Source: a virus (lineage: Duplodnaviria; Caudoviricetes). Taken from it: 54,092 nucleotides of DNA. The notes under the pieces were generated by a model. That model had not been told where the DNA came from. It did no database searches and saw only the letters and a list, made by a program, of their open reading frames with translations. Location of the stretch: IMG/VR virus record IMGVR_UViG_3300047557_001894, positions 1 to 54,092 of that record; one strand, written 5' to 3'. Made by a program: the position numbers and the translations under genes. Below, in pieces: positions 1 through 53,359 of the stretch; position 1 is the first letter of the stretch, and each line of letters starts with the position of its first letter.

Positions 1-723
1 CACATGGAGTGGGCGCCTCCGAGCGTCGGGCAGTGGACCGACTACATGCTGGCGCAGGGCGGCGGCGCGAGCTCCAACATGGTGACCATCGACATCGTGG
101 CCGAGGAGCAGCGCGTCGACGCGGCGTGGGCCGGTGCCTACGCGAAGGCGGCGGGGCTCGTGACCGCGTTCCTGCGCTCCCGCGCGCAGCATCTCCACGC
201 CATGCCCAAGGCGGGCGCCGCGTATCTCGACGCGATGCGCTGGCCTTCGCACCGCTCGTGGTCGAACGCGACCAACGCCTTCGCGAGCTCGATCGTGCAA
301 GGCACCGCGAGCATGTACCGCGACCGTCTGATCGCGGCCTACGTGGGCCAGGGCATCAGCGAAGAGTTCGCGAATTGGACCGCGACCGCTGACCTTCCTG
401 ATCCCGACGAAGTGATGGACGGCAAGATCACCTTCAAGCACGAGCCGCACCGTCTCGATCGCACCCTCGCTCTTTCGAGCTCCATGGCGGCGTCGCTCCT
501 CGGCGACGACAACGCGGGTCGCCGCCAGGTTCGCTCGGACGCCTTCTGGCGCTTCATCGGGCAGATGGCCGACCAGAGCGCGACCGACCTGGTGATCCCC
601 GGCGTCGGGGCGATCTTGCGGGCCGAGACCGCGAAGCCCGAGCTTCGCCTCTCGACTACCCGCGAGGGCAATGCGGCGATCTCGAAGATCGCTCCGCACA
701 TGAAGGCGGCTGGGCGCATCTAG
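1..723 (+). CDS. C-terminal part of MoxR-type AAA+ ATPase (5' truncated by window)
   Basis: Frame open from base 1 (HMEW). WPSHRSW, VGQGISEEF and DLPDPDEV motifs resemble the lid/C-terminal region of AAA ATPases paired with DUF2201-type vWA proteins. Walker motifs lie outside the window. Confidence 0.7.
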   Translation, partial: HMEWAPPSVGQWTDYMLAQGGGASSNMVTIDIVAEEQRVDAAWAGAYAKAAGLVTAFLRSRAQHLHAMPKAGAAYLDAMRWPSHRSWSNATNAFASSIVQGTASMYRDRLIAAYVGQGISEEFANWTATADLPDPDEVMDGKITFKHEPHRLDRTLALSSSMAASLLGDDNAGRRQVRSDAFWRFIGQMADQSATDLVIPGVGAILRAETAKPELRLSTTREGNAAISKIAPHMKAAGRI

Positions 724-784
724 CCCCTGTGCTCTCGGTAGGCCCACGCATGCGCATGCGTGGGCTCTCCGTGAGCACAGGGGC
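723..784 (+). repeat. Intergenic hairpin element, copy 1 (CGGTAG-stem-TCTCCGTGA)
   Basis: Outer arms GCCCCTGTGCTC (723-734) / GAGCACAGGGGC (773-784); CGGTAG 736-741; perfect 24-bp palindrome 742-765; TCTCCGTGAGC from 766. Confidence 0.85.
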
Positions 785-811
785 CACGGTCGGCTCGTGC
801 GGGAGAAAGTC

Positions 812-1726
812 ATGGATGAGGACGACGACTCGATGATTCCGAAGACGCTGAAGGACGCTGCGCGAATGCTCGACGCGAATGGCGGTCCGCGTCAGCGCTT
901 CTTCGAGCAGAAGATGAAGCCGCTGATCGAGCAGCTCGAAGCGTTGGCGAACGCCGAGGGCATCCCGTGGGTGAGCGTCATCGAGCTCGATCGAGTGGCC
1001 GCGAAGGAGGGTGAAGCCATCGCCTCGGTGTTCACCCTCGCCGGACAGCGAGACTCGCACGGCAGGATGATTCCGCCGTTGCACCCCGGCATGGTCCTGG
1101 CCGCGGAGGCGTGCTGCGGCACTCCAGACCCAGACCTCATGCACCTAGGTCGTGTGATGCGCATGAAGGCGAATGAGGGGCTGTGCCCCTGCCCTGCGTG
1201 CACGCAGCGGCGTGAGGAGCCCGACGCCAAGCCCGCAGAGGGCGCGAAGACTTCCTCACCGCTGGTGCAATTCAGCAGTCAGGACATCGCCAGTCTCTTT
1301 GCTGAAGTAGCGGCGGTGCGTGTCGAAGGTGAGGTCGTCACCGGGCGCCCCGCGAAGGGGCCGAAGGAAGAAGCCTTCGAGAAGGAGCTGGTGCCGCTTA
1401 TCGAGAATCTGCGAGCGGCGGCGAAGCAGCACGGTGTCCAAGGCATCTTTGCCTTCGACATCGGGAACGGGGAGCGCATCGAAGAAGGGGTCATCGGTGG
1501 CGGTGTCGTGATGGACATGCAGGACATCACGGAGCCGCGTCTGTTGGCGGCCTCGGGTGTGCTCTTCGGCAATCCAGAGAACTACCCGGTCGCGATGCGG
1601 CAGGTAGTGATCGAGTCAGCCAACTTCATCAAGAAGAAGCGCGACGAGCGCGAACGTGCGGGCAAGGGGGAAACGAAGTTCACGCAGCCGGTCGACCCGA
1701 AGGTCAACACGTTCGGCTCGAACTAG
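812..1726 (+). CDS. Hypothetical protein with two copies of a small alpha/beta repeat domain
   Basis: GGGAG RBS before ATG 812; internal repeats FEQKMKPLIEQLEALANAEGIPW and FEKELVPLIENLRAAAKQHGVQG, separated by a CPCPAC linker. Confidence 0.75.
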   Translation: MDEDDDSMIPKTLKDAARMLDANGGPRQRFFEQKMKPLIEQLEALANAEGIPWVSVIELDRVAAKEGEAIASVFTLAGQRDSHGRMIPPLHPGMVLAAEACCGTPDPDLMHLGRVMRMKANEGLCPCPACTQRREEPDAKPAEGAKTSSPLVQFSSQDIASLFAEVAAVRVEGEVVTGRPAKGPKEEAFEKELVPLIENLRAAAKQHGVQGIFAFDIGNGERIEEGVIGGGVVMDMQDITEPRLLAASGVLFGNPENYPVAMRQVVIESANFIKKKRDERERAGKGETKFTQPVDPKVNTFGSN

Positions 1727-1728
1727 GC

Positions 1729-1786
1729 GCGAGCTCCGACGGTAGAGCGCGCGGCACCAACCACGCGCTTCTCCGTGAGCGCTCGC
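1729..1786 (+). repeat. Intergenic hairpin element, copy 2
   Basis: CGGTAG 1740-1745; inner stem AGCGCG/CGCGCT; TCTCCGTGAGC from 1770; outer GCGAGC/GCTCGC. Confidence 0.85.
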
Positions 1787-1816
1787 GTTGTGCGAGGGCC
1801 TGATCGGGAGAGTGAC

Positions 1817-2305
1817 ATGGACGAGAAGCAGAAGGCAGAAGCACAGATGAAGGCGTGCGGAGCGAAGGTAGAGATGGTCGCCACGCACAAGCAGGCAGCC
1901 ATCGACCACCTGAAGGTGCAGGAGCTCCGTCGTCTGAACGCCGAGATGCTCAACTCGGCTTACGAAGGGCCGGAAGCCATCTTGAAGAAGGCGGCTCTCT
2001 TCAAGGAGAAGCTGGACGATCTGCTCGATCCTTCGCCGCACCAGCAGCCCAAGGTCGCGGGCGACCCGAACGACACCCGCGGGCCGAAGGAAGTCATCTA
2101 CGACACCGAGATCGGTCCGCTGATGGATCAGATCATCGCCTGCTGCGAGAAGAACAGCATCCCCATTCTCGCTCACTTCGAGTTCGACGGGGACATGAGA
2201 TGCACAACCAACCTCGGCCCGTTCGCACACATGGGCGCGAGGGTCGCGGAGGCTGCGCTCGTGGGTGGGCCGCGCGCCATTCTGGCGGTTATGGCGGGGG
2301 GCTAG
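1817..2305 (+). CDS. Hypothetical protein with one copy of the same repeat domain
   Basis: GGGAG RBS, ATG 1817; KEVIYDTEIGPLMDQIIACCEKNSIPILAHF aligns by eye with the repeats in the upstream gene. Confidence 0.75.
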   Translation: MDEKQKAEAQMKACGAKVEMVATHKQAAIDHLKVQELRRLNAEMLNSAYEGPEAILKKAALFKEKLDDLLDPSPHQQPKVAGDPNDTRGPKEVIYDTEIGPLMDQIIACCEKNSIPILAHFEFDGDMRCTTNLGPFAHMGARVAEAALVGGPRAILAVMAGG

Positions 2306-2312
2306 CCCCTCC

Positions 2313-3074
2313 GTGCTCCTAAAGATCACGAACTTTTGCAGCTTAGGCTGCAAGCACTGCATGGAGGACTCGACCATCGCGGGCGAGCACATGACGCGCG
2401 AGACCTTCGAGGCGGCGCTCGATCTCACCGAGCGTGTCGAGGCGAAAGCCTACGCGGCGGGTGCGCCGAGGCATCTGCTCCTCTCGGGTGGCGAGTGCTC
2501 CGAGCACCCTGACTTTCTCGCCTACTTCGAGCGCGCGTTGGAGCGGCGGTTCGTGGTCACGATCATCACCAACGGGATGTGGCTTGGCGACGAAGCGTTG
2601 CGAAACGCGATCGTGCCACGCGCCCTGATGGTGCAAGTGACGAACGATCCGCGCTTCTACCCGAAGGCTCCACCGCGGATCGAGATGCCTCGTCTCGGGT
2701 ACGTGGACTCGCTCACGGCGCTTGTTCCGCTCGGGCGACTGGCTCGCAAGTCGGGGCCACATCCCCTTCCAATCAAGGGCTCTCCGAGCTCGTTCAACGT
2801 CCGCAGCCTCACGCGCAGCCTCGGAGACATCGGCGAAGCCGTTGCCATGATCCGCGTGCGGGCGATGATGGGCAGGGGCGGGCACTGCGCGCCGAGCATC
2901 GGGTGGGACGGCGGCATGTACGCCGGAGAGACGATCAACTGCTTTCGCATCGGAGATGTGCGGAGCACGAACCTGGAGCTGTCGCGGGCCGTTTGCGAGA
3001 TGAAGTGCAACGCCTGCGGCTTGGTCGATGGGCTGCCCGACACGCACAAGGCAGCCATTGGTGAACTCGAATAG
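2313..3074 (+). CDS. Radical SAM enzyme with C-terminal Cys (SPASM/twitch-like) region
   Basis: CxxxCxxC (CSLGCKHC), SGGE motif, ITNG, C-terminal C...C...CNAC. GTG start at 2313 is inferred. Confidence 0.9.
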   Translation: MLLKITNFCSLGCKHCMEDSTIAGEHMTRETFEAALDLTERVEAKAYAAGAPRHLLLSGGECSEHPDFLAYFERALERRFVVTIITNGMWLGDEALRNAIVPRALMVQVTNDPRFYPKAPPRIEMPRLGYVDSLTALVPLGRLARKSGPHPLPIKGSPSSFNVRSLTRSLGDIGEAVAMIRVRAMMGRGGHCAPSIGWDGGMYAGETINCFRIGDVRSTNLELSRAVCEMKCNACGLVDGLPDTHKAAIGELE

Positions 3075-3086
3075 GGAGAAGCAACG

Positions 3087-4439
3087 ATGGGAATGAACCT
3101 GGCGCAAGCGACTAAGAGCCTGCCAGCACAGCAGAAGCTCTCGGTCGCGCGCATGATGATCGCGCACAAGAACCCGTACTTCACCAGCCTCGTGATCCGA
3201 ATGATCTTCCGCGAGGTCGACAAGGAGTCGCAGCCGATGGGCATCGGCGTCTCGCGTCGAGGCGTCGTGTACTGGCGTCGTGACTTCATCGACCATCTCA
3301 CCGCGGAGCAGCTCGCCGTGTTGCTCCTGAACAAGTCGCTGCACGTCCTCTTTCGGCACTCGGACAGGGCGCGAGCGGGGGCCTTCAACCCCGAGGTGTT
3401 CAACGAGGCGGCTGACTGCGAGATCAACGACGATCTCGAAGCCGCTGGATGGACGATGGAGTCCGTCGACGAGAACGGGCAGCCGTGCAGGCTGCTGACA
3501 CCGAGCCACTTCAAGCTGGAAAGCCACAAGTCAGCCGAGTGGTACTACAACGAGATCATGCAGCAGCGGGCGCAGAACCAGGCGCCCCCTGTGAACCACG
3601 GCACCGCCCGTGGCTGCGGTGGTTCGGGCGCTGGCGGGGCGCCTGGCCCTAACGAACCGAGCGGGCAGCCACAGCCGAACGGTGAGGGTGACGCTTCGGG
3701 CAGCGAGCAGGGCGATGGGGGCATGGACGGGCGCTCTGAGGGCGAGCTGGAGGGAATGCGCGATCAAGTCGCGCAGGGCATGAAGAAGCGGCAGGCGGGG
3801 AAGGGCCAGGGGTCCATGCCCCTCGGCTGGCAAGTCTGGAGCGACGAAGAGCTCAAGCCGCCGACGATCCGGTGGCAAGACGAGCTTCGGCAGACCGTGC
3901 GCAACGCTTTCCGAGCGGTCGCCGGGAACGTGGACCGCACGTTCAAGAAGTCGAACCGCAAGCAGGCTGGCCTTGGCTTCGGCTCGGGTCGCCCGGTCCT
4001 TGCGGGGTGGCACAAGCCCACCCCCAACGTGATGATCGCGATTGACACTTCGGGTTCTATGGGCGGGCTGATGCCCGAGATCATGGCCGAAGTGCAGTCC
4101 ATCCTCACGGAGGTGCGCGGCAGCGTGTCCTTCGTGTCCATCGACGCCGAAGTGCAGAGCTCGGGCCGCACGGCTGACTGGCGAGTGATTGCTCGCGAGT
4201 CGAAGGGCGGCGGCGGTACGGACTTCCGCCCACTGTTCGATCACATCGAGAAGATGCCGAAGAACGAGCAGCCCAACGTGGTGATCTTCGCCACCGACGG
4301 CTGCGGCCCCGCGCCGAAGGACGAGCCCGACCCGCACGTCATCTGGCTCCTGTGCGGGGACTACACGATGAAGCCTGCCTCGTGGGGCAAGTACATCAGC
4401 ACCGACAAGAAGACCACGCCCGAGGCGTACTCAGAGTGA
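3087..4439 (+). CDS. Metallopeptidase-like + vWA domain protein (DUF2201-type)
   Basis: N-terminal PYF...LH..RH..R, NEAADCEIND; Gly/Gln-rich linker; MIDAS DTSGS, GGGGTDF, TDG. Confidence 0.9.
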   Translation: MGMNLAQATKSLPAQQKLSVARMMIAHKNPYFTSLVIRMIFREVDKESQPMGIGVSRRGVVYWRRDFIDHLTAEQLAVLLLNKSLHVLFRHSDRARAGAFNPEVFNEAADCEINDDLEAAGWTMESVDENGQPCRLLTPSHFKLESHKSAEWYYNEIMQQRAQNQAPPVNHGTARGCGGSGAGGAPGPNEPSGQPQPNGEGDASGSEQGDGGMDGRSEGELEGMRDQVAQGMKKRQAGKGQGSMPLGWQVWSDEELKPPTIRWQDELRQTVRNAFRAVAGNVDRTFKKSNRKQAGLGFGSGRPVLAGWHKPTPNVMIAIDTSGSMGGLMPEIMAEVQSILTEVRGSVSFVSIDAEVQSSGRTADWRVIARESKGGGGTDFRPLFDHIEKMPKNEQPNVVIFATDGCGPAPKDEPDPHVIWLLCGDYTMKPASWGKYISTDKKTTPEAYSE

Positions 4440-4612
4440 GCGCCGAGACCACGAACAGCAGCGCATCCATGCGCGTGCAGGGGGAGGTCGAGGGCCAGAA
4501 GTACGAAGCCCAGCTCTCCATCAAGACGACGCGGCTCCTCTCGAAGGATGAGCTCGTCGCTCTGATGGCAGAAGTACATCGGGCCATTCGATCGTCGCTG
4601 TCTCAGCGATGA
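4436..4612 (+). CDS. Small hypothetical protein
   Basis: GTGA overlap with upstream stop; 58 codons. Confidence 0.55.
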   Translation: MSAETTNSSASMRVQGEVEGQKYEAQLSIKTTRLLSKDELVALMAEVHRAIRSSLSQR

Positions 4613-4658
4613 CGGTAGGGCACGGGGTTCGCTCCGTGCCTCTCCGTGATCTCTGGAG
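4601..4658 (+). repeat. Intergenic hairpin element, copy 3
   Basis: CGGTAG 4613-4618; inner stem GGCACGG/CCGTGCC; TCTCCGTGA from 4641; the outer stem reaches into the GGAGGA RBS of the next gene. Confidence 0.8.
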
Positions 4659-4663
4659 GAGCC

Positions 4664-5134
4664 ATGAACAAGGCTATTCGTCGCGAGCAGGAGCGCCGTG
4701 CCTACGACCGGCACCAGCGCTCGCGCAAGCCACTGCACTACAAGAGCAAGTACCCTGGCAAGACGCAGGGCAAGCTGTGCTCCTGCGTGATGTGCGGGAA
4801 CCCGCGCAGGCACTTCGGCAAGTCCAAGCGCAAGGAGCTCAACGCGACTCGCGAGAGCCCCGAGCTCTTGCACTTCGAGTCGCTGGACCCGGGGTTTCCC
4901 GACGAGTGCAACATCTGGGATTGCGACTGCGATGACTGCCTCTGGGCGCACCGGCACGACAACGAGCCGTACGTCCAGTCGCGGTTCGAGCACCGGCCCT
5001 TGTCCGCACTCGGAGCATGCGAGCCGTGGCGGTTCATCGAGGAGCTCCGCGTCGCAGAGATTCTGGCGAAGATGGCGCTTCGTCGGACGAAGGCGAAGAT
5101 GGCGCTTCGTCGGACGAAGGCGATGGTGTCGTGA
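4664..5134 (+). CDS. Cys-rich hypothetical protein
   Basis: GGAGGA RBS; CSCVMCGNPRR and CDCDDC motifs. Confidence 0.75.
   Translation: MNKAIRREQERRAYDRHQRSRKPLHYKSKYPGKTQGKLCSCVMCGNPRRHFGKSKRKELNATRESPELLHFESLDPGFPDECNIWDCDCDDCLWAHRHDNEPYVQSRFEHRPLSALGACEPWRFIEELRVAEILAKMALRRTKAKMALRRTKAMVS
5065..5123 (+). repeat. Exact in-frame 27-nt tandem duplication (AKMALRRTK x2)
   Basis: GGCGAAGATGGCGCTTCGTCGGACGAA twice, followed by GGCGA. Confidence 0.95.
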
Positions 5135-5643
5135 GTGTCAGCGACGAGCGCGTGCGCGAGTTGGTGGCTCGCGCTCTACGCACCATCGAGACGTACAACC
5201 GCGGCGAGATCATCCAAGAGCAGGACGCTGCCGTCTCGTTCGTTGGTGGCGTGATGGCTGCGACCCGTGCGTCTGCGAACGACTACCTCCAGCGCACGAC
5301 CTTCATGTCCTCGTCCGAGCAGATGTTGGACACCTACGAGTCCAGACAGCTTGTGTACCTAACCGCACGCGCATGGATCACGGCACCCGAGCAGTGGTTC
5401 GGCGTCCCGTGCATGTGGAACCCGGCCCTCGCAGTGCTCGGGGAGATGCTTCGAGAAGACCCGAGCTGGTCTCTAATGATCCTGTTGCCTGAAGCCGTCA
5501 TGCAGACCGGCTCTCGGATCGGTGGCCCGTTCGTTCCCGAAGAGGAGCGCGGCTACCTCGTACCCGTTGCCCATCGGTGGGCGGACTACCTGCGGCAGAC
5601 GAACCCACGACCCATCACACCCGAGGAAAGAGGAGCGACATGA
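5131..5643 (+). CDS. Hypothetical protein
   Basis: GTGA coupling upstream, ATGA coupling downstream. Confidence 0.7.
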   Translation: MSVSDERVRELVARALRTIETYNRGEIIQEQDAAVSFVGGVMAATRASANDYLQRTTFMSSSEQMLDTYESRQLVYLTARAWITAPEQWFGVPCMWNPALAVLGEMLREDPSWSLMILLPEAVMQTGSRIGGPFVPEEERGYLVPVAHRWADYLRQTNPRPITPEERGAT

Positions 5644-6227
5644 AGCTGATCGCATTGCTGGCAGAGCACAAGGAGGCCCGTCGTCGTGGAGCCGCGAAGG
5701 GTGCGCTCTGGCTCGCCAAGGAGGGAGCACCGGGAACGAAGTATTCGTGGGGGCTCGGTGAGCGTGATGCGTGGCACGTCCACAGCCCGACTTCGGGCAC
5801 AGCGAACTACGCGCTGACTATGGAGGATATGAGCATCGACACCTGGTACACGGTGCCGCCGAACCCGCGCGAGAGCTTCACGATCCCCGATCTCGACCCG
5901 TCGATCCCCTGGTCCGAGGGCGTGGTGGAGGATTTCCTTCGGGTAGTGCGCGGGCTTCCGTTCGCGCACAACGACGTGGTGGGTGGCGTCGAGTCGCTCG
6001 TCGCGCAGCGCAAGAAGCTCAACGAGAGCTATCAGCAGCAGCTCAGGCTCGCTGAGGAGATGGCCAATCGGGCCAACCAAGCGGGCGAGAAACTCGCGCA
6101 GGCCGAGCGGCAGAGGGACGAGTTCTCGCTGCTCCTTGCGAAGCACAGCAGGTGCAACGCGCGCTTGCGTCAGGCACTCAAGAGCTTCGGACTGTCGGAC
6201 ACCATCGTTGCGATGCTGGAGGAGTGA
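5640..6227 (+). CDS. Hypothetical protein with C-terminal coiled coil
   Basis: AGGAG RBS; heptad-rich C-terminal half. Confidence 0.7.
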   Translation: MKLIALLAEHKEARRRGAAKGALWLAKEGAPGTKYSWGLGERDAWHVHSPTSGTANYALTMEDMSIDTWYTVPPNPRESFTIPDLDPSIPWSEGVVEDFLRVVRGLPFAHNDVVGGVESLVAQRKKLNESYQQQLRLAEEMANRANQAGEKLAQAERQRDEFSLLLAKHSRCNARLRQALKSFGLSDTIVAMLEE

Positions 6228-6229
6228 AC

Positions 6230-6595
6230 ATGGGCGAGTCTCACATTCGTATGGTCGATCCTGCGGCGCTGTACGACAGGATCGGGGAGCTCGAACGCGA
6301 GCTCGAAGCTACGCAGCACGAGCTGGTCCGCGTGCAGGAAAGGCACGCGGACCCCCCGCACAGGTTGCAGCTCGCTGCGTGGGCGAGACCCCTGCCGCAG
6401 TGGGCCGCGGCCGCTTGGGTCGTCTGCATTGCAGGGTGCTTCGCGATCCAGGCGTGGCGTCTGACGGACGGCACGTCGCTCGTGACAGTGCTGATCGCGT
6501 GGGTCCAGTTTTCTGTGGTGGTGCTGGTCGTAGTGCTGATGGCGCTGCTCGCCATCTTCATCGCGGCGTTCGAGTGGGTGAAGGTGAAGCGATGA
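6230..6595 (+). CDS. Membrane protein (coiled coil plus two TM helices)
   Basis: GGAGG RBS; two hydrophobic stretches at the C-terminus. Confidence 0.7.
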   Translation: MGESHIRMVDPAALYDRIGELERELEATQHELVRVQERHADPPHRLQLAAWARPLPQWAAAAWVVCIAGCFAIQAWRLTDGTSLVTVLIAWVQFSVVVLVVVLMALLAIFIAAFEWVKVKR

Positions 6596-6637
6596 ACCAC
6601 CGCAGGAAACGCGGTGGAATGCGAGAGTGATTAGAGC

Positions 6638-6862
6638 ATGGGTATGAGCGAAGCCGAGTTCATGTGCATCGAGTGCGGTCATCGCACTTCGATGCGCCCA
6701 CGTCCCGACGTGATGTACCAGCTCACCCGAGAGCTGCTGGTGCCGTACCCCGACGACATACCCGTCGCTTCGTGCGATGGGTGCGGCGAGACGTACACGA
6801 ACCGAGCCGAGGACGAGGCGATCCGCGCCTCGTTGCTTGCGAAACACGGTGTGCCCGCGTGA
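6638..6862 (+). CDS. Stand-alone YgiT/MqsA-type zinc finger
   Basis: CIECG...IPVASCDGCGETY pattern; no HTH attached. Confidence 0.65.
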   Translation: MGMSEAEFMCIECGHRTSMRPRPDVMYQLTRELLVPYPDDIPVASCDGCGETYTNRAEDEAIRASLLAKHGVPA

Positions 6863-6884
6863 TCGAGAAAGGAATCCCCTGACC

Positions 6885-7157
6885 ATGAGCGACATTGCAG
6901 AGACGCTTTCGCCGCTGGAGCAGCGCGTCGCTGACTACATCGAGACCCACTACAACCTGTCGCTGACCCGCGGGGGCGTAATGAACGTCCTGGCTCTCGG
7001 TAGGTCGTACCGCATGGAGCGCGGAGACGACGTGTTCACCATGTCGATGCGCTTCGACGAGAACGACGAAGCGGCAGCGATCGAGTGGGTCGACAGCGCG
7101 CAGGCGAAGGAAGCGATGCGCGAGATGTTCGGAGCCGACAAGGGCGACGAAGAGTAG
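6885..7157 (+). CDS. Hypothetical protein
   Basis: AAGGA upstream, ATG 6885, high GC3. Confidence 0.7.
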   Translation: MSDIAETLSPLEQRVADYIETHYNLSLTRGGVMNVLALGRSYRMERGDDVFTMSMRFDENDEAAAIEWVDSAQAKEAMREMFGADKGDEE

Positions 7158-7218
7158 TCACCGGACGCGGGGGGCCGCGCACAGAGAACGTACGAAAGAG
7201 AAACTGGAGAAGCGAAGC

Positions 7219-8079
7219 ATGGACATCATCGCAACGGATAAGCAGGGCAGCACTGGCTCGATCACCTACTGGTCCCTCTCGGGGGCCGTGAACTACAGCA
7301 AGCTCGAAGCAGCGTGGGTCGCGCAGGGGTTGAACCCGCAGCTCCTCCCGCCGCGCACCAGTCCGAAGACTGCTCTGCGCCGCGCCATGGACGGTCTCGT
7401 GTCCGGGCAGAGCCAGATGGTGAAGGCCGGGTCCGCGCCGGGGTGGCTCGGGTTCTTCCAGCGCGAGACCACTGGCGGGCGTCCGAACTTCCCGATGGTG
7501 GTCGAGGCGTGCTTGAACGCGGACCCCACCAAAGACCCCGTGATCCGTACCCCTGACGGATCGCCAGTGCCCGAAGCCATCGAAGATTCGGTGACGATCT
7601 TGTACTCGAACGAGCTCAAGAACGTCCACCACGACGACCTGGGCACCTGGCTCGTGAGCACGGCGCGTCGCCTGATGGCAGTGCGCTTGCGCGAGTCGGG
7701 CGGCATCTACTTCATCCCCTCCGCGGGCGGGCTCGCGGAGTGGCAGCAGGTTGCCTCGGTCCTGCACAAGGCTACGGCGTGCACGATCCAAGAGGTGCCT
7801 GCGATGCACTCTCGGGAAGCGGCGAGGGCTGTCCTCGAAGGCATCACGAACGAGGTGAACGCCTACGTCGAGCAGATCGACGCGGAGCTCGGCAAGGTGG
7901 GCGTCCGAGCGCTGGAGAGCCGAGAGGCGTCCATCACTGCCTACGCTCGCAAGATCAGCATGTTCGAGGAGGTCATCGGGTCGAAGCTCGATGGTCTTCG
8001 GGGGGCCTTGAACGGGCTCGAAACCAAGGTCGCGCACGCGAAGCTGACCGCCATCGCGGTTGCTGAAGACGCGGCATGA
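7219..8079 (+). CDS. Conserved hypothetical protein (DUF6744/DUF3150-like)
   Basis: YWSL...LLP..SP..ALRRA N-terminus, LRESGGIYFIP motif, helical C-terminus. Family assignment is from memory. Confidence 0.5.
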   Translation: MDIIATDKQGSTGSITYWSLSGAVNYSKLEAAWVAQGLNPQLLPPRTSPKTALRRAMDGLVSGQSQMVKAGSAPGWLGFFQRETTGGRPNFPMVVEACLNADPTKDPVIRTPDGSPVPEAIEDSVTILYSNELKNVHHDDLGTWLVSTARRLMAVRLRESGGIYFIPSAGGLAEWQQVASVLHKATACTIQEVPAMHSREAARAVLEGITNEVNAYVEQIDAELGKVGVRALESREASITAYARKISMFEEVIGSKLDGLRGALNGLETKVAHAKLTAIAVAEDAA

Positions 8080-22470: not shown

Positions 22471-22546
22471 GGGACCGTAGCTCAATTGGTTAGAGCCCCC
22501 GGCTGTGGACCGGGGAGTCAGGGTTCGAGCCCCTGCGGCCCCACCA
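22471..22546 (+). tRNA. tRNA-His (GUG)
   Basis: Acceptor GGGACCG/CGGCCCC (one A-C mismatch); D arm GCTC/GAGC; anticodon stem CCCGG/CCGGG with loop CTGTGGA; T arm CAGGG-TTCGAGC-CCCTG; ends ACCA. Confidence 0.93.
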
Positions 22547-22746
22547 GCACAGGCCCCCTCGCGTCTCCCGCATGGTGCAGGAGCGCCCGTCGTTGACCCT
22601 CTTTCGGGGAGGGCGGGCGCCAGAAGGGCCTCGTCAGCGAGTCGATGCGCTCGCACCTCAACAAGACCAAGTAGCAGGGCGCGGTACAGCCTACGAAACC
22701 GTAGGGCTGCAAGGCAGCCCTACCCTCCATCACAAAGGCCAGGGCA

Positions 22747-51104: not shown

Positions 51105-51740
51105 GTGGACATCACAGGCGTACGATTCGGACGGCTGACTGTAGAAGGTCGAAGCACAAGCGAACAGCCCAAGAACGGATCGAAGTGGGTGTGCCGATGC
51201 GACTGTGGCGCGACTCGCGAGGTTGCTAGGGCGGCCCTGGTGTGCGGGAGAACGAGGAGCTGTGGGTGTTTGCGTAGGGAAGCCGCACGGCAAAACATCA
51301 AAGCGGCGACAGCAGGTGGCCCGACGTACGGGAACCTTCGCCACGGCGGGTCGAAAACTGCGGAGTGGCGTACGTGGTGCGACATTCGGAAGCGATGCGG
51401 AAACCCCAAGTCGCGGGCTTACGCCTATTACGGGGGTCGCGGGATCGCCGTTGATCCTCGATGGGAGTCCTTCGAGAACTTTTTGGCCGACGTTGGGCCT
51501 AGACCAGCAGGTGGATACACGCTGGATCGCATCGACAACAACGGGCCCTACTCGCGCGAGAACTGCCGATGGGCTAACCGACTGGATCAGGCGAACAACC
51601 GTCGGTCCAACGTACGCCTTGTTATCGACGGCGTTTCTCACACCATCACAGAGTGGTCGCGCATCTGTGGAGTAGGACGAACCACGATCCAGGCCCGACT
51701 CAAGCGAGGGCTGAGTCCAAAAGCAGCGATGGAGCTTTAG
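51105..51740 (+). CDS. Free-standing HNH homing endonuclease
   Basis: [44 protein letters not shown]...QANNRR. Confidence 0.92.
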
Positions 51741-52592: not shown

Positions 52593-53359
52593 TTCACCTC
52601 CGTGTCCGTTGCTCGGGTCTCGGGGGCAGTCTGCGGTACAGGCGCGGGGGGTGAAAAGGCCGCAGGCACCGCAGCAACACCGCCCGCCGACGCCACTCCA
52701 ACGGTGACGCCCGAGACGGTAACAACGTGGGTGTGGGTGCTGAACGCTGTTACGAACTGCCCGATGGCCGTTTCCAGCGTTTTGATGCGGGTCTCGTGGT
52801 CGTCGAGCACGCTCTGGTTGGCGTTGCCCAGCACCGCAGGCTGAAGGTTCGTGTCCCCCAGCTTCACCTTGCCGGAGCCGCGAGCTTGCAGCCGAATGTC
52901 TCCGGCGCCGTCTACATCGACGAGAACAGCCCCGCCGCCATCGACGAAGAGCTTGTGGCTGTCCCCCGACTTCACGCGGGTCACCACGTCGTCGGTGATG
53001 TCCTCACCGTTGATCGCTTCCGGCGGGGGCGGCATCTGCCCGTTCCACAGCCGAGCGATGATGATGGGGCCCGCGTCTTGAATGCCCTCGGGCACGGCGA
53101 TGACCACAACGTCGCCGACCTTCGGCTTCACCACGGAGCCGTACCCAGCGCCCGCGTAGTCGGACCCGACGAAGACGGTTTGCTCCTCCCCCGAGGGGAT
53201 GAACTCCACATCGGCGAAGAGCCCCTGCTCTGCGTCGGAACCCGTCTCCGTGACGACCGCGAGAGTGATCCAAACGCGCGGGTCCACTCCCGGCCGCGAG
53301 ACTGCGGACGCGAGCTTGCCCAGGTCGATCGTGCGCCGCGTGCGGCCCATTCGCCTCAT
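52589..53359 (-). CDS. Baseplate central spike (gpV-like)
   Basis: OB-fold G.G....PKVGD.VVI..PEG; C-terminal HTH (His-x-His) metal-binding motif. Confidence 0.85.
   Translation of the reverse strand: MRRMGRTRRTIDLGKLASAVSRPGVDPRVWITLAVVTETGSDAEQGLFADVEFIPSGEEQTVFVGSDYAGAGYGSVVKPKVGDVVVIAVPEGIQDAGPIIIARLWNGQMPPPPEAINGEDITDDVVTRVKSGDSHKLFVDGGGAVLVDVDGAGDIRLQARGSGKVKLGDTNLQPAVLGNANQSVLDDHETRIKTLETAIGQFVTAFSTHTHVVTVSGVTVGVASAGGVAAVPAAFSPPAPVPQTAPETRATDTEVK

Follow-up and report, generated by a model that had tools for sequence, protein, structure and literature searches.

The DNA analysed here, called the window throughout, is the 54,092-base IMG/VR virus record IMGVR_UViG_3300047557_001894 (64% GC), an uncultured phage contig rated 56% complete, and our subject is a hairpin element that stands between genes near its start in three copies. 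The plus strand up to about 35.8 kb carries replication genes and the minus strand carries structural genes; because the latter include a baseplate wedge subunit and head proteins, the window phage is, on its gene content, a tailed phage with contractile-tail-type genes. The element pairs two invariant strands between stems of variable sequence, and it is most likely a cis-acting structured RNA module in polycistronic phage messengers.

A search of the window for CGGTAG followed after 15–35 nucleotides (nt) by TCTCCGTGA gave three matches, all on the plus strand (736-774, 1740-1778, and 4613-4649; spacers of 24, 24, and 22 nt in copies 1 to 3), against none in 100 dinucleotide-preserving shuffles. 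The original prediction had described three intergenic hairpins with these two invariant strands, and its coordinates, spacings, stems, and stop-codon and ribosome-binding-site positions were all correct. A fourth exact TCTCCGTGA (at 53245) has neither a CGGTAG partner nor a hairpin. Each copy is the centre of a 58–61 nt interrupted hairpin that runs, from the outside in, through an outer stem, the CGG/CCG pairs, a fixed UAG/UCU interior, and a GC-rich variable inner stem-loop:

724-783, plus strand: copy 1, with a perfect 11-bp outer stem (724-734/773-783) and U.U at 735/772
736-738/769-771: CGG/CCG of the copy 1 core, with interior TAG 739-741 / TCT 766-768
742-751/756-765: copy 1 inner stem, with its loop at 752-755
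1728-1787, plus strand: copy 2, with an imperfect outer stem (1728-1738/1777-1787) and A-U at 1739/1776
1740-1742/1773-1775: CGG/CCG of the copy 2 core, with TAG 1743-1745 / TCT 1770-1772 and an inner stem-loop at 1746-1769
4601-4658, plus strand: copy 3, with an imperfect outer stem (4601-4611/4648-4658) and A-U at 4612/4647
4613-4615/4644-4646: CGG/CCG of the copy 3 core, with TAG 4616-4618 / TCT 4641-4643
4619-4627/4632-4640: copy 3 inner stem, with a UUCG loop at 4628-4631

The fold of CGG/CCG plus a fixed interior that had been proposed is predicted in all three copies. Their inner stems, unrelated in sequence, are all paired, so the claim that these stems differ yet keep pairing is borne out by folding; only copy 1 has a perfect outer stem, those of copies 2 and 3 being imperfect. 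As RNA, copies 1 to 3 have minimum free energies (MFEs) of -57.1, -41.1, and -43.4 kcal/mol, which correspond to z = -7.5, -2.3, and -4.5 relative to shuffled sequences; the estimates run from -55 to -57 for copy 1 and from -39 to -41 for copy 2. A covariance model of the copies (R1) recovers no window sites but these three, with scores of 76–81 bits (80.8 for copy 1, 80.1 for copy 2); the reverse strands of the three sites score 52, 29, and 19 bits, and the next best other match 15.7 bits (E 0.13). The hairpin begins 1 nt past the TAG stop at 721-723 in copy 1 and 2 nt past the TAG stop at 1724-1726 in copy 2, and in copy 3 the TGA stop at 4610-4612 lies within the 5' arm; the next start codon follows the core after 37, 38, and 14 nt, respectively, and the Shine-Dalgarno GGAGGAG of copy 3 overlaps the 3' arm. 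Copy 3 recurs without any change in L129, a metagenome contig of 1.85 kb that belongs to the same phage (98% amino acid [aa] identity).

The same core occurs in other phages. Viral contigs were scanned with the core plus R-S-C...G-S-Y for the first three inner pairs (6 loci, 2 convincing: L214 and L209), one genome per species from 185,579 species was scanned with the same pattern (89 loci, 1 convincing: L219), and viral contigs were scanned again with the pattern lacking its final GA (66 loci, 60 of them new, yielding one lineage on three contigs: L393, L379, and L385); members whose inner stem does not start R-S-C may be missed by these constrained scans. Hits were filtered by folding and by a second covariance model (R2), with which the members used in its training score 52–69 bits; L214, L219, and L209 score 52–62 bits, and the L393 lineage, outside the training set and with a core that ends TGC instead of TGA, scores 37 bits. 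All other core matches reach at most 30.4 bits and lie mostly within long open reading frames (ORFs) with high GC at third codon positions (GC3). The first three members are carried by:

L214: G001, a 45.8 kb provirus rated 100% complete
L219: G002 contig C22, 45 kb, from a metagenome bin
L209: G003, a 23.9 kb viral contig

The family thus comprises at least seven independent sites and nine sequences in five lineages (the window and four others). G001 and G002 C22 are syntenic relatives (40–93% aa identity); in blastp comparisons of the window, G001/G002, and G003 (E<1e-4), the one similarity was an HNH-like ORF in the window and G003, and the L393 lineage had no tblastx match to the other carriers (E<1e-8). 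The G002 bin is mixed (the prophage-like C22 has 61% GC, and contig C3, which carries a Y1 transposase, 46% GC), and no host could be assigned from it.

Placement is as regular as the core. All seven sites are intergenic and sense to their flanking genes, and six are intercistronic; at six the hairpin either overlaps the upstream stop or starts no more than 2 nt away from it, the next start codon lies 14–38 nt past the core, and at two (copy 3 and G003) the Shine-Dalgarno falls within the outer stem. The gene contexts themselves vary: early or middle genes at the edges of inserted genes in the window; in G001 and G002, the late operon, where the order is major head protein, small ORF, element, another ORF, and head-tail adaptor; and, in G003, a segment that varies in gene content among relatives, with the element 1.9 kb downstream of the portal gene. 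Contigs with portals 75–87% identical to that of G003 lack the element. In the L393 lineage about 85 nt separate the element from a preceding helix-turn-helix gene and 33 nt from the 54-aa ORF that follows; in L379, codon-position statistics show the element to be followed by this ORF and then a terminator. The latter (L379:2455-2498) is canonical, a GC-rich hairpin followed by TTCGTC, and it faces the end of a convergent gene that by eye appears cell-wall hydrolase-like.

Further searches added no member. The bare core pattern matched at least 113 stretches of viral contigs, and among the matches listed none besides the window's own copies folded as a hairpin, so these matches are taken as chance. 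A GA-prefixed pattern gave 26 loci and no new member, and a loop-variant pattern (A14 to R, C45 to Y) gave 74 loci, 41 of them new, and no convincing variant. One hairpin among the candidates (L413/L451; G104:20285-20327, minus strand) has CGGTGG and TTTCCGTGA around a perfect 12-bp GC stem and was rejected as antisense to genes on GC3; it lies between two co-directional genes, its GA-CGGTGG flank is the core with A changed to G and C to T, and it is either chance or an inverted relative. Searches from the carriers were similar in outcome: the loci of DUF2201 relatives (12 viral, 80 metagenome) lack the element except L129, capsid relatives of G001 in viral contigs comprised only G001 itself, and 101 genomes (G002 and 100 relatives) held nothing above 21 bits beyond G002 itself. 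Apart from L129, close relatives of the window phage are absent from the collections searched; its polymerase is at most 30% identical to anything in protein comparison, and no match to a cultured phage, in DNA or protein, was informative about context. Achromobacter siphophages have capsids 44% identical to that of G001. Contigs of four public DNA runs hold the same phage (about 99% identity) with no variant at the elements, and the public runs listed as holding the phage included no RNA run. The habitats in which DNA of the phage is seen are freshwater and wastewater.

The original prediction called for a covariation check, and in the eight-sequence alignment the stems do covary around an invariant core. 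CGGTAG, TCTCCGTG, and the inner pair C18-G37 are invariant in 8/8 sequences; the core amounts to 14 invariant bases, with halves 17–24 nt apart across members. Standard pairs fill 88.2% of cells, against 63.7% in shuffles (0/500 reach the observed value), and pairing drops to 39–48% when partners are slid by 1–3 columns. Twelve of 18 pairs have changed on both sides, and the three CGG/CCG pairs show no variation in the eight sequences. The non-window members were chosen partly by their inner hairpin; the outer stem, which was not a selection criterion, has double changes in 7/12 pairs. The orthologous site of G001 and G002 offers the cleanest evidence of selected structure: although blastp can no longer align the capsid genes and small ORFs that flank it, the core is kept together with a TCGTAWTTCCC tail of 11 nt, and the inner stem has G-C swapped for C-G at three positions. 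Two models suit the fixed interior: a stack of the non-canonical pairs U.U, A.C, and G.U, or two single-U bulges; in the second model the bulges lie on opposite strands and flank A-U and G-C. Pair 5 of the inner stem (columns 20/35) is a U.G wobble in the five non-window sequences (four lineages) and Watson-Crick in the window copies, and recognition may also involve this wobble. The proposal of a structure-specific recognition site is supported by the recurrence of the core in four other lineages, by the covarying stems, and by the variable core spacing.

The genes around the window copies, on which some of the readings below depend, are as follows:

1-723, plus strand: ORF1, C-terminal part of a MoxR-like AAA ATPase (phrog_1297, E 6e-10), its stop directly before copy 1
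812-1726, plus strand: ORF2, 304 aa, function unassigned, between copies 1 and 2
1817-2305, plus strand: ORF3, 162 aa, function unassigned (phrog_20111), directly downstream of copy 2
2361-3074: ORF4, weak radical-SAM match, between the ATPase and DUF2201 genes
3087-4439, plus strand: ORF5, DUF2201 metallopeptidase/VWA-like protein, the usual ATPase neighbour in relatives
4436-4612, plus strand: ORF6, 58 aa, its stop within the 5' arm of copy 3
4664-5134, plus strand: ORF7, 156 aa (phrog_4499), directly downstream of copy 3
7219-8079: ORF9, DUF6744 protein

The genes for the MoxR-ATPase, DUF2201, and DUF6744 proteins form a trio conserved in many uncultured phages (window 1-8079 against loci L117–L144); by tblastn, all three are present in 6 of 14 relatives' loci and the ATPase in 12. 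The distance from the ATPase stop to the DUF2201 gene is 48–140 nt in 3 of 7 measured relatives and 780–1190 nt in the other 4. In the window, ORF2–4 lie between ATPase and DUF2201 genes and ORF6–8 between DUF2201 and DUF6744 genes; the ATPase stop is followed by copy 1, copy 2 stands between ORF2 and ORF3, and copy 3 between ORF6 and ORF7. ORF2 contains two repeats of a segment present once in ORF3, and in alignment the leaders of both genes from hairpin to ATG are alike (CGGGAGA, four bases, CATGGA, one base, GAG), so copies 1 and 2 may stem from one duplication of a hairpin together with its gene; if so, their stems have since fully diverged and the core has stayed unchanged.

Several other features of this region were recorded. 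The interior of ORF7 (window 5065-5123) holds a perfect 27-nt tandem repeat in 2.2 copies, of which one unit is absent from the contig of one public DNA run, a natural copy-number variation. In a distant relative (L119:5861-6001) the ATPase gene is followed by a strong hairpin and T-run and then by a TTGACA-N17-TACTGT promoter before the DUF2201 gene; the arms of this hairpin begin GCCCCTG and end CAGGGGGC, which resembles the outer stem of copy 1 at the same position and may be chance. About 150 nt past the sole tRNA gene of the window (tRNA-His, 22471-22546) lies a perfect palindrome, GTAG-GGCTGC-aag-GCAGCC-CTAC (22699-22723), which was rejected as a family member because it is symmetric.

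Four observations together point to an element that acts as a folded RNA: all sites are sense, the core spacing varies, the sense strand folds more stably, and G.U pairs lie on the sense strand. The predicted sense fold is the stabler at 6/7 sites, by 2.6–13 kcal/mol, and at those six sites the MFE structures contain 1–5 G.U pairs in sense and none in antisense. With core halves 17–24 nt apart, only folding gives a constant arrangement, which is incompatible with a fixed two-block site in duplex DNA; a sense-strand form of single-stranded DNA (ssDNA) would be compatible with the same observations. As for the reader of the core, a host or universal component appears likelier than a phage protein because no protein is common to the carriers, one of which is a complete provirus. 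That the element is an RNA-level cis element read by machinery from outside the phage is, on balance, probable. Known RNA families do not account for it: a comparison with Rfam 15, which the original prediction had called for, placed the window sites below the gathering threshold of every family (the tRNA alone reaches it in the window), and relaxing the search to an E of 10 yields only matches to microRNA-hairpin and sX7 models that score far short of the threshold.

A long interrupted intercistronic helix is the design of T7 RNase III sites, and we tentatively assign the element a function as a processing and stability hairpin of this type, an assignment that is plausible without being probable. 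At the seven sites the helix has 19–26 predicted pairs and an interior interruption, between cistrons and on the transcript strand, which is the T7-type geometry. Four candidates had been put forward originally (an RNA-level site such as a T7-type RNase III hairpin, the binding site of a phage RNA-binding protein, a hairpin promoter, and an ssDNA recombination site), and the RNA-level site fits best, because all seven sites are sense and G.U pairs essentially sense-only. In the proposed mechanism, the variable outer stem and the variable apical stem-loop would clamp the invariant strands CGGUAG and UCUCCGUG, which would form three G-C pairs and a fixed non-Watson-Crick stretch. This core would be read base-specifically by a factor outside the phage, from the host or the universal machinery; an RNase III-type, double-strand-specific endonuclease would bind the interrupted helix of about 19–26 bp and cut at the fixed interior. 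The upstream cistron would then keep a protective 3' hairpin, the downstream cistron would gain a new 5' end 14–38 nt before its start codon, and neighbouring, often accessory, genes would be uncoupled in fate. Such a separation of messages would fit the element's place after a capsid gene and at the edges of accessory genes. Put briefly, we infer RNA, not DNA, as the active form, a host factor as the reader, and cleavage as the act.

Several points weigh against this assignment. We know of no requirement of RNase III for sequence as strict as 14 invariant bases, and three invariant G-C pairs without covariation (8/8) suggest a more sequence-specific reader. The inner stem measures 6–10 bp, so that a ruler measuring from the loop would cut at differing places, and its covariation is partly circular. 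Copy 2 folds better in antisense (-43.4 versus -39.0 kcal/mol). The claim of a host factor is an argument from absence at the sensitivity of blastp, and three carrier records are incomplete (56%, 27%, and fragments).

Two further readings would also act through the nascent or translated RNA. That the element is an elongation signal, read by RNA polymerase or a NusG-family factor as a pause, an attenuator, or an antitermination site, is unlikely, though a possibility of some substance. CGGTAG equals positions 3–8 of ops, the non-template mini-hairpin bound by RfaH, and it lies on the non-template (sense) strand at 7/7 sites, the orientation of ops. The 12-base ops site is given as GGCGGTAGCGTG, with a C3:G8 pair, a G4–A7 loop, T6 flipped out, and G5 read base-specifically (PMC5995543, PMC11880322). 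The 3' half of the core ends CGTG, as ops does, but the contiguous 12-nt ops GGCGGTAGnnTG is not found on the non-template strand: only positions 3–8 are contiguous, positions 1–2 (GG) are GA, CT, CC, or TT here, and CGTG follows 21–28 nt later, a separation at which the halves cannot share one transcription bubble of 10–11 nt (PMC5995543). Nearly all ops bases are said to be required (PMC7593976). The likeness was, besides, picked out post hoc from many short motifs, six of the seven sites are intercistronic and not in an operon leader, and the NusG-family domain PF02357 is present in 0/3 virus records. The consensus pause has G at -10, a pyrimidine at -1, and G at +1, and it is matched here by an invariant G (G37) 10 nt upstream of a U-G step; G37 and CGTG are invariant in 8/8 sequences. 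A universal reader such as RNA polymerase would explain an identical core in phages that have no protein in common, and the nascent hairpin could bind polymerase directly, as HK022 put RNA does; about 70 nt of nascent put RNA alone can modify RNA polymerase (PMC9378689). The put layout itself (about 70 nt, two stem-loops, by an early promoter) is absent, the element being a single interrupted hairpin. A consensus scan found no intrinsic terminator (GC-rich hairpin and U-tract) at the three copies, where the strand past the inner stem is UCUCCGUG, itself paired, nor any terminator-like site elsewhere on the plus strand beyond a weak match at 1433-1447, and a scan upstream of the window copies found no promoter-like site. 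A bolder form of this reading, a 'split ops', would make the element a new class of elongation signal, factor-independent or dependent on a NusG-family protein, that reprograms polymerase as it enters accessory or late genes; the nascent hairpin would set CGGUAG beside the CGUG pause step or bind RNA polymerase directly. This form is distinctly unlikely; if true, it would explain the same 14 bases in unrelated phages without a common protein. The second reading, a translational operator or coupling device for the downstream gene, is rather unlikely. A terminating ribosome would melt the outer stem, and the invariant UCUCC, which resembles an anti-Shine-Dalgarno and is held by the interrupted GG(U)AG, could switch to the downstream Shine-Dalgarno. 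The hairpin's position within 2 nt of the upstream stop or overlapping it (6/7 sites) suits such a device, as do the Shine-Dalgarno in the 3' arm of the outer stem in copy 3 and G003 and the complementarity of UCUCC to GGAGA or GGAG upstream of 5/7 downstream starts; yet coupling would work without an invariant core, G001 lacks a Shine-Dalgarno with which UCUCC could pair, the upstream stop of the L393 lineage is about 85 nt away, and the Shine-Dalgarno of copies 1 and 2 lies 13–20 nt outside the hairpin. Translational bypass or readthrough was rejected, as CGG-TAG is in frame with the upstream stop at only 3/6 intercistronic sites and the stop type varies, and a K-turn was rejected, as the 5' GA for tandem G.A pairs is present at only 4/7 sites.

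The remaining alternatives place the element at the level of DNA or under a phage protein. A DNA-level ssDNA hairpin, either like the repetitive extragenic palindromes (REPs) served by a host Y1/HUH enzyme or as a recombination site bounding accessory cassettes, is distinctly unlikely. GTAG stands directly before a GC-rich inner stem of 6–10 bp at 7/7 sites, the position of the REP tag, although its first G is predicted to pair with the 3' strand; GTAG-tagged REPs are described with stems mostly of 6–9 bp, downstream of coding regions, in sub-families with alternative complementary stems (PMC3733652). Here, by contrast, there are 1–3 copies per genome and every stem differs, the full core occurs in one prophage contig among the 185,579 species genomes (1 of 89 pattern matches is real), and the Y1 transposase domain PF01797 is found in 0/3 virus records, with a single match in G002 on the contig of 46% GC. 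GTAG-tagged palindromes number 10 in the window, against 3–10 for control tetramers, and are not enriched beyond the copies. Membership in a known host REP family or a match to a terminator, which had been named in advance as evidence against a recognition site, thus did not materialize: REP membership fails, and the copies show no terminator. Of the cassette-boundary idea, one part stands, in that elements lie where gene content differs from relatives: the window copies occur where ORF2–4 and ORF6–8 interrupt the ATPase/DUF2201/DUF6744 trio, and the G003 element occurs in a segment that varies among relatives with portals 75–87% identical. Against the idea, no recombinase is shared, and the contigs of the four DNA runs contain neither joined forms nor rearrangements at the elements; retention of one site by the deeply diverged G001 and G002 points to vertical inheritance, and G.U-dependent pairing on the transcript strand favours RNA. 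It is very improbable that the element binds an RNA-binding protein encoded by the phage, whether for translational repression or for antitermination, as N/boxB and coat-protein operators do. An invariant asymmetric helix interior is typical of protein operators, and with three carrier records incomplete a common gene could lie off-contig; this candidate is nevertheless disfavoured by the absence (blastp, E<1e-4) of any protein common to the window, the complete provirus G001, and G003, and by the lack of a tblastx match of the L393 lineage to the others (E<1e-8). The sole common ORF, Zn-ribbon/HNH-like, is in only two lineages. In the window it lies at 51105-51740 on the plus strand, opposite to the surrounding structural genes and in a gap between them, and it contains a zinc-ribbon-like motif rich in Cys; an ORF at the start of G003 (L336:43-891), in which the motif is present twice, matches it over 76 aa at 39% identity. 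The window ORF has no Pfam match, is absent from G001 and G002 by blastp, and contains a stretch, LDRIDNNG, that we take to be HNH-like; the ORF is probably a free-standing homing endonuclease. A hairpin promoter of the N4 type for a virion or other phage RNA polymerase can hardly be expected: three oriented hairpins do lie upstream of genes near one contig end, but their 19–26 pairs and variable loops are unlike the short N4 hairpins, no phage RNA polymerase gene was noticed among the 20 window ORFs scanned against PHROGs, and two carriers, G001 and G002, hold the element inside a late head-gene operon of a 45 kb temperate-type genome, which disfavours the idea further.

To our knowledge, phage operons offer few conserved cis-acting RNA signals, most of them described in model coliphages (put, nut/boxB, and the RNase III sites of T7). 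Conserved regulatory hairpins between phage cistrons are a known kind of element; this particular motif appears not to be known, as judged from Rfam and from a text search for the 9-mer, which returned only primers and unrelated matches; these two made up the search for prior descriptions. An identical 14-base core across five phage lineages without protein similarity in the comparisons run (G001 and G002 being related) is unusual, and the motif bears all the marks of a structure under selection. If the reader is a host enzyme or the transcription machinery, the element would be a widely usable 'punctuation' signal for high-GC hosts and a ready-made part for the control of polycistronic expression; its place at the borders of accessory genes may be relevant to the insulation of such genes upon entry into a phage genome. 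At a size of about 60 nt, its function could be tested with synthetic RNA and two-cistron reporters, without phage culture.

Among known systems, the ops/RfaH site shares with the element the non-template CGGTAG hexamer and CGTG at the end of the 3' strand (Zuber et al. 2018, PMC5995543); the element differs in being split by 21–28 nt, in lacking the leading GG, and in being mostly intercistronic, and half of its hexamer is predicted to pair within a long RNA hairpin. HK022 put is likewise a cis-acting nascent phage RNA that works without a phage protein, as the element is predicted to do, but put consists of two stem-loops just downstream of early promoters (Hwang et al. 2022, PMC9378689), whereas the element lies between cistrons and has a single hairpin, which is interrupted. 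GTAG-tagged REPs resemble it in having GTAG at the 5' foot of a GC-rich stem-loop, in lying just downstream of coding regions between co-directional genes, and in being thought to act as RNA hairpins; they differ in being high-copy and chromosomal, with family-specific stems, often inverted dimers, and a link to RAYT transposases (Di Nocera et al. 2013, PMC3733652). The element adds to the REP plan an invariant 3' strand, TCTCCGTG, and an outer stem, and the three virus records contain no RAYT. Integron attC sites, too, are imperfect hairpins with a conserved, partly unpaired region and variable terminal structure, strand-specific and located at the 3' ends of accessory genes; the element contains none of the attC core sequences, and its G.U pattern favours RNA. 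Compared with the RNase III hairpins of the T7 early genes as generally described, the element has a core sequence unrelated to any that we could cite, with 14 invariant bases exceeding the known requirement, and this core is kept across unrelated phages and not in one genome only; in common with them, it is a long intercistronic hairpin of lower stem, interruption, and upper stem, present in several copies per operon on the transcript strand, with a core common to the copies.

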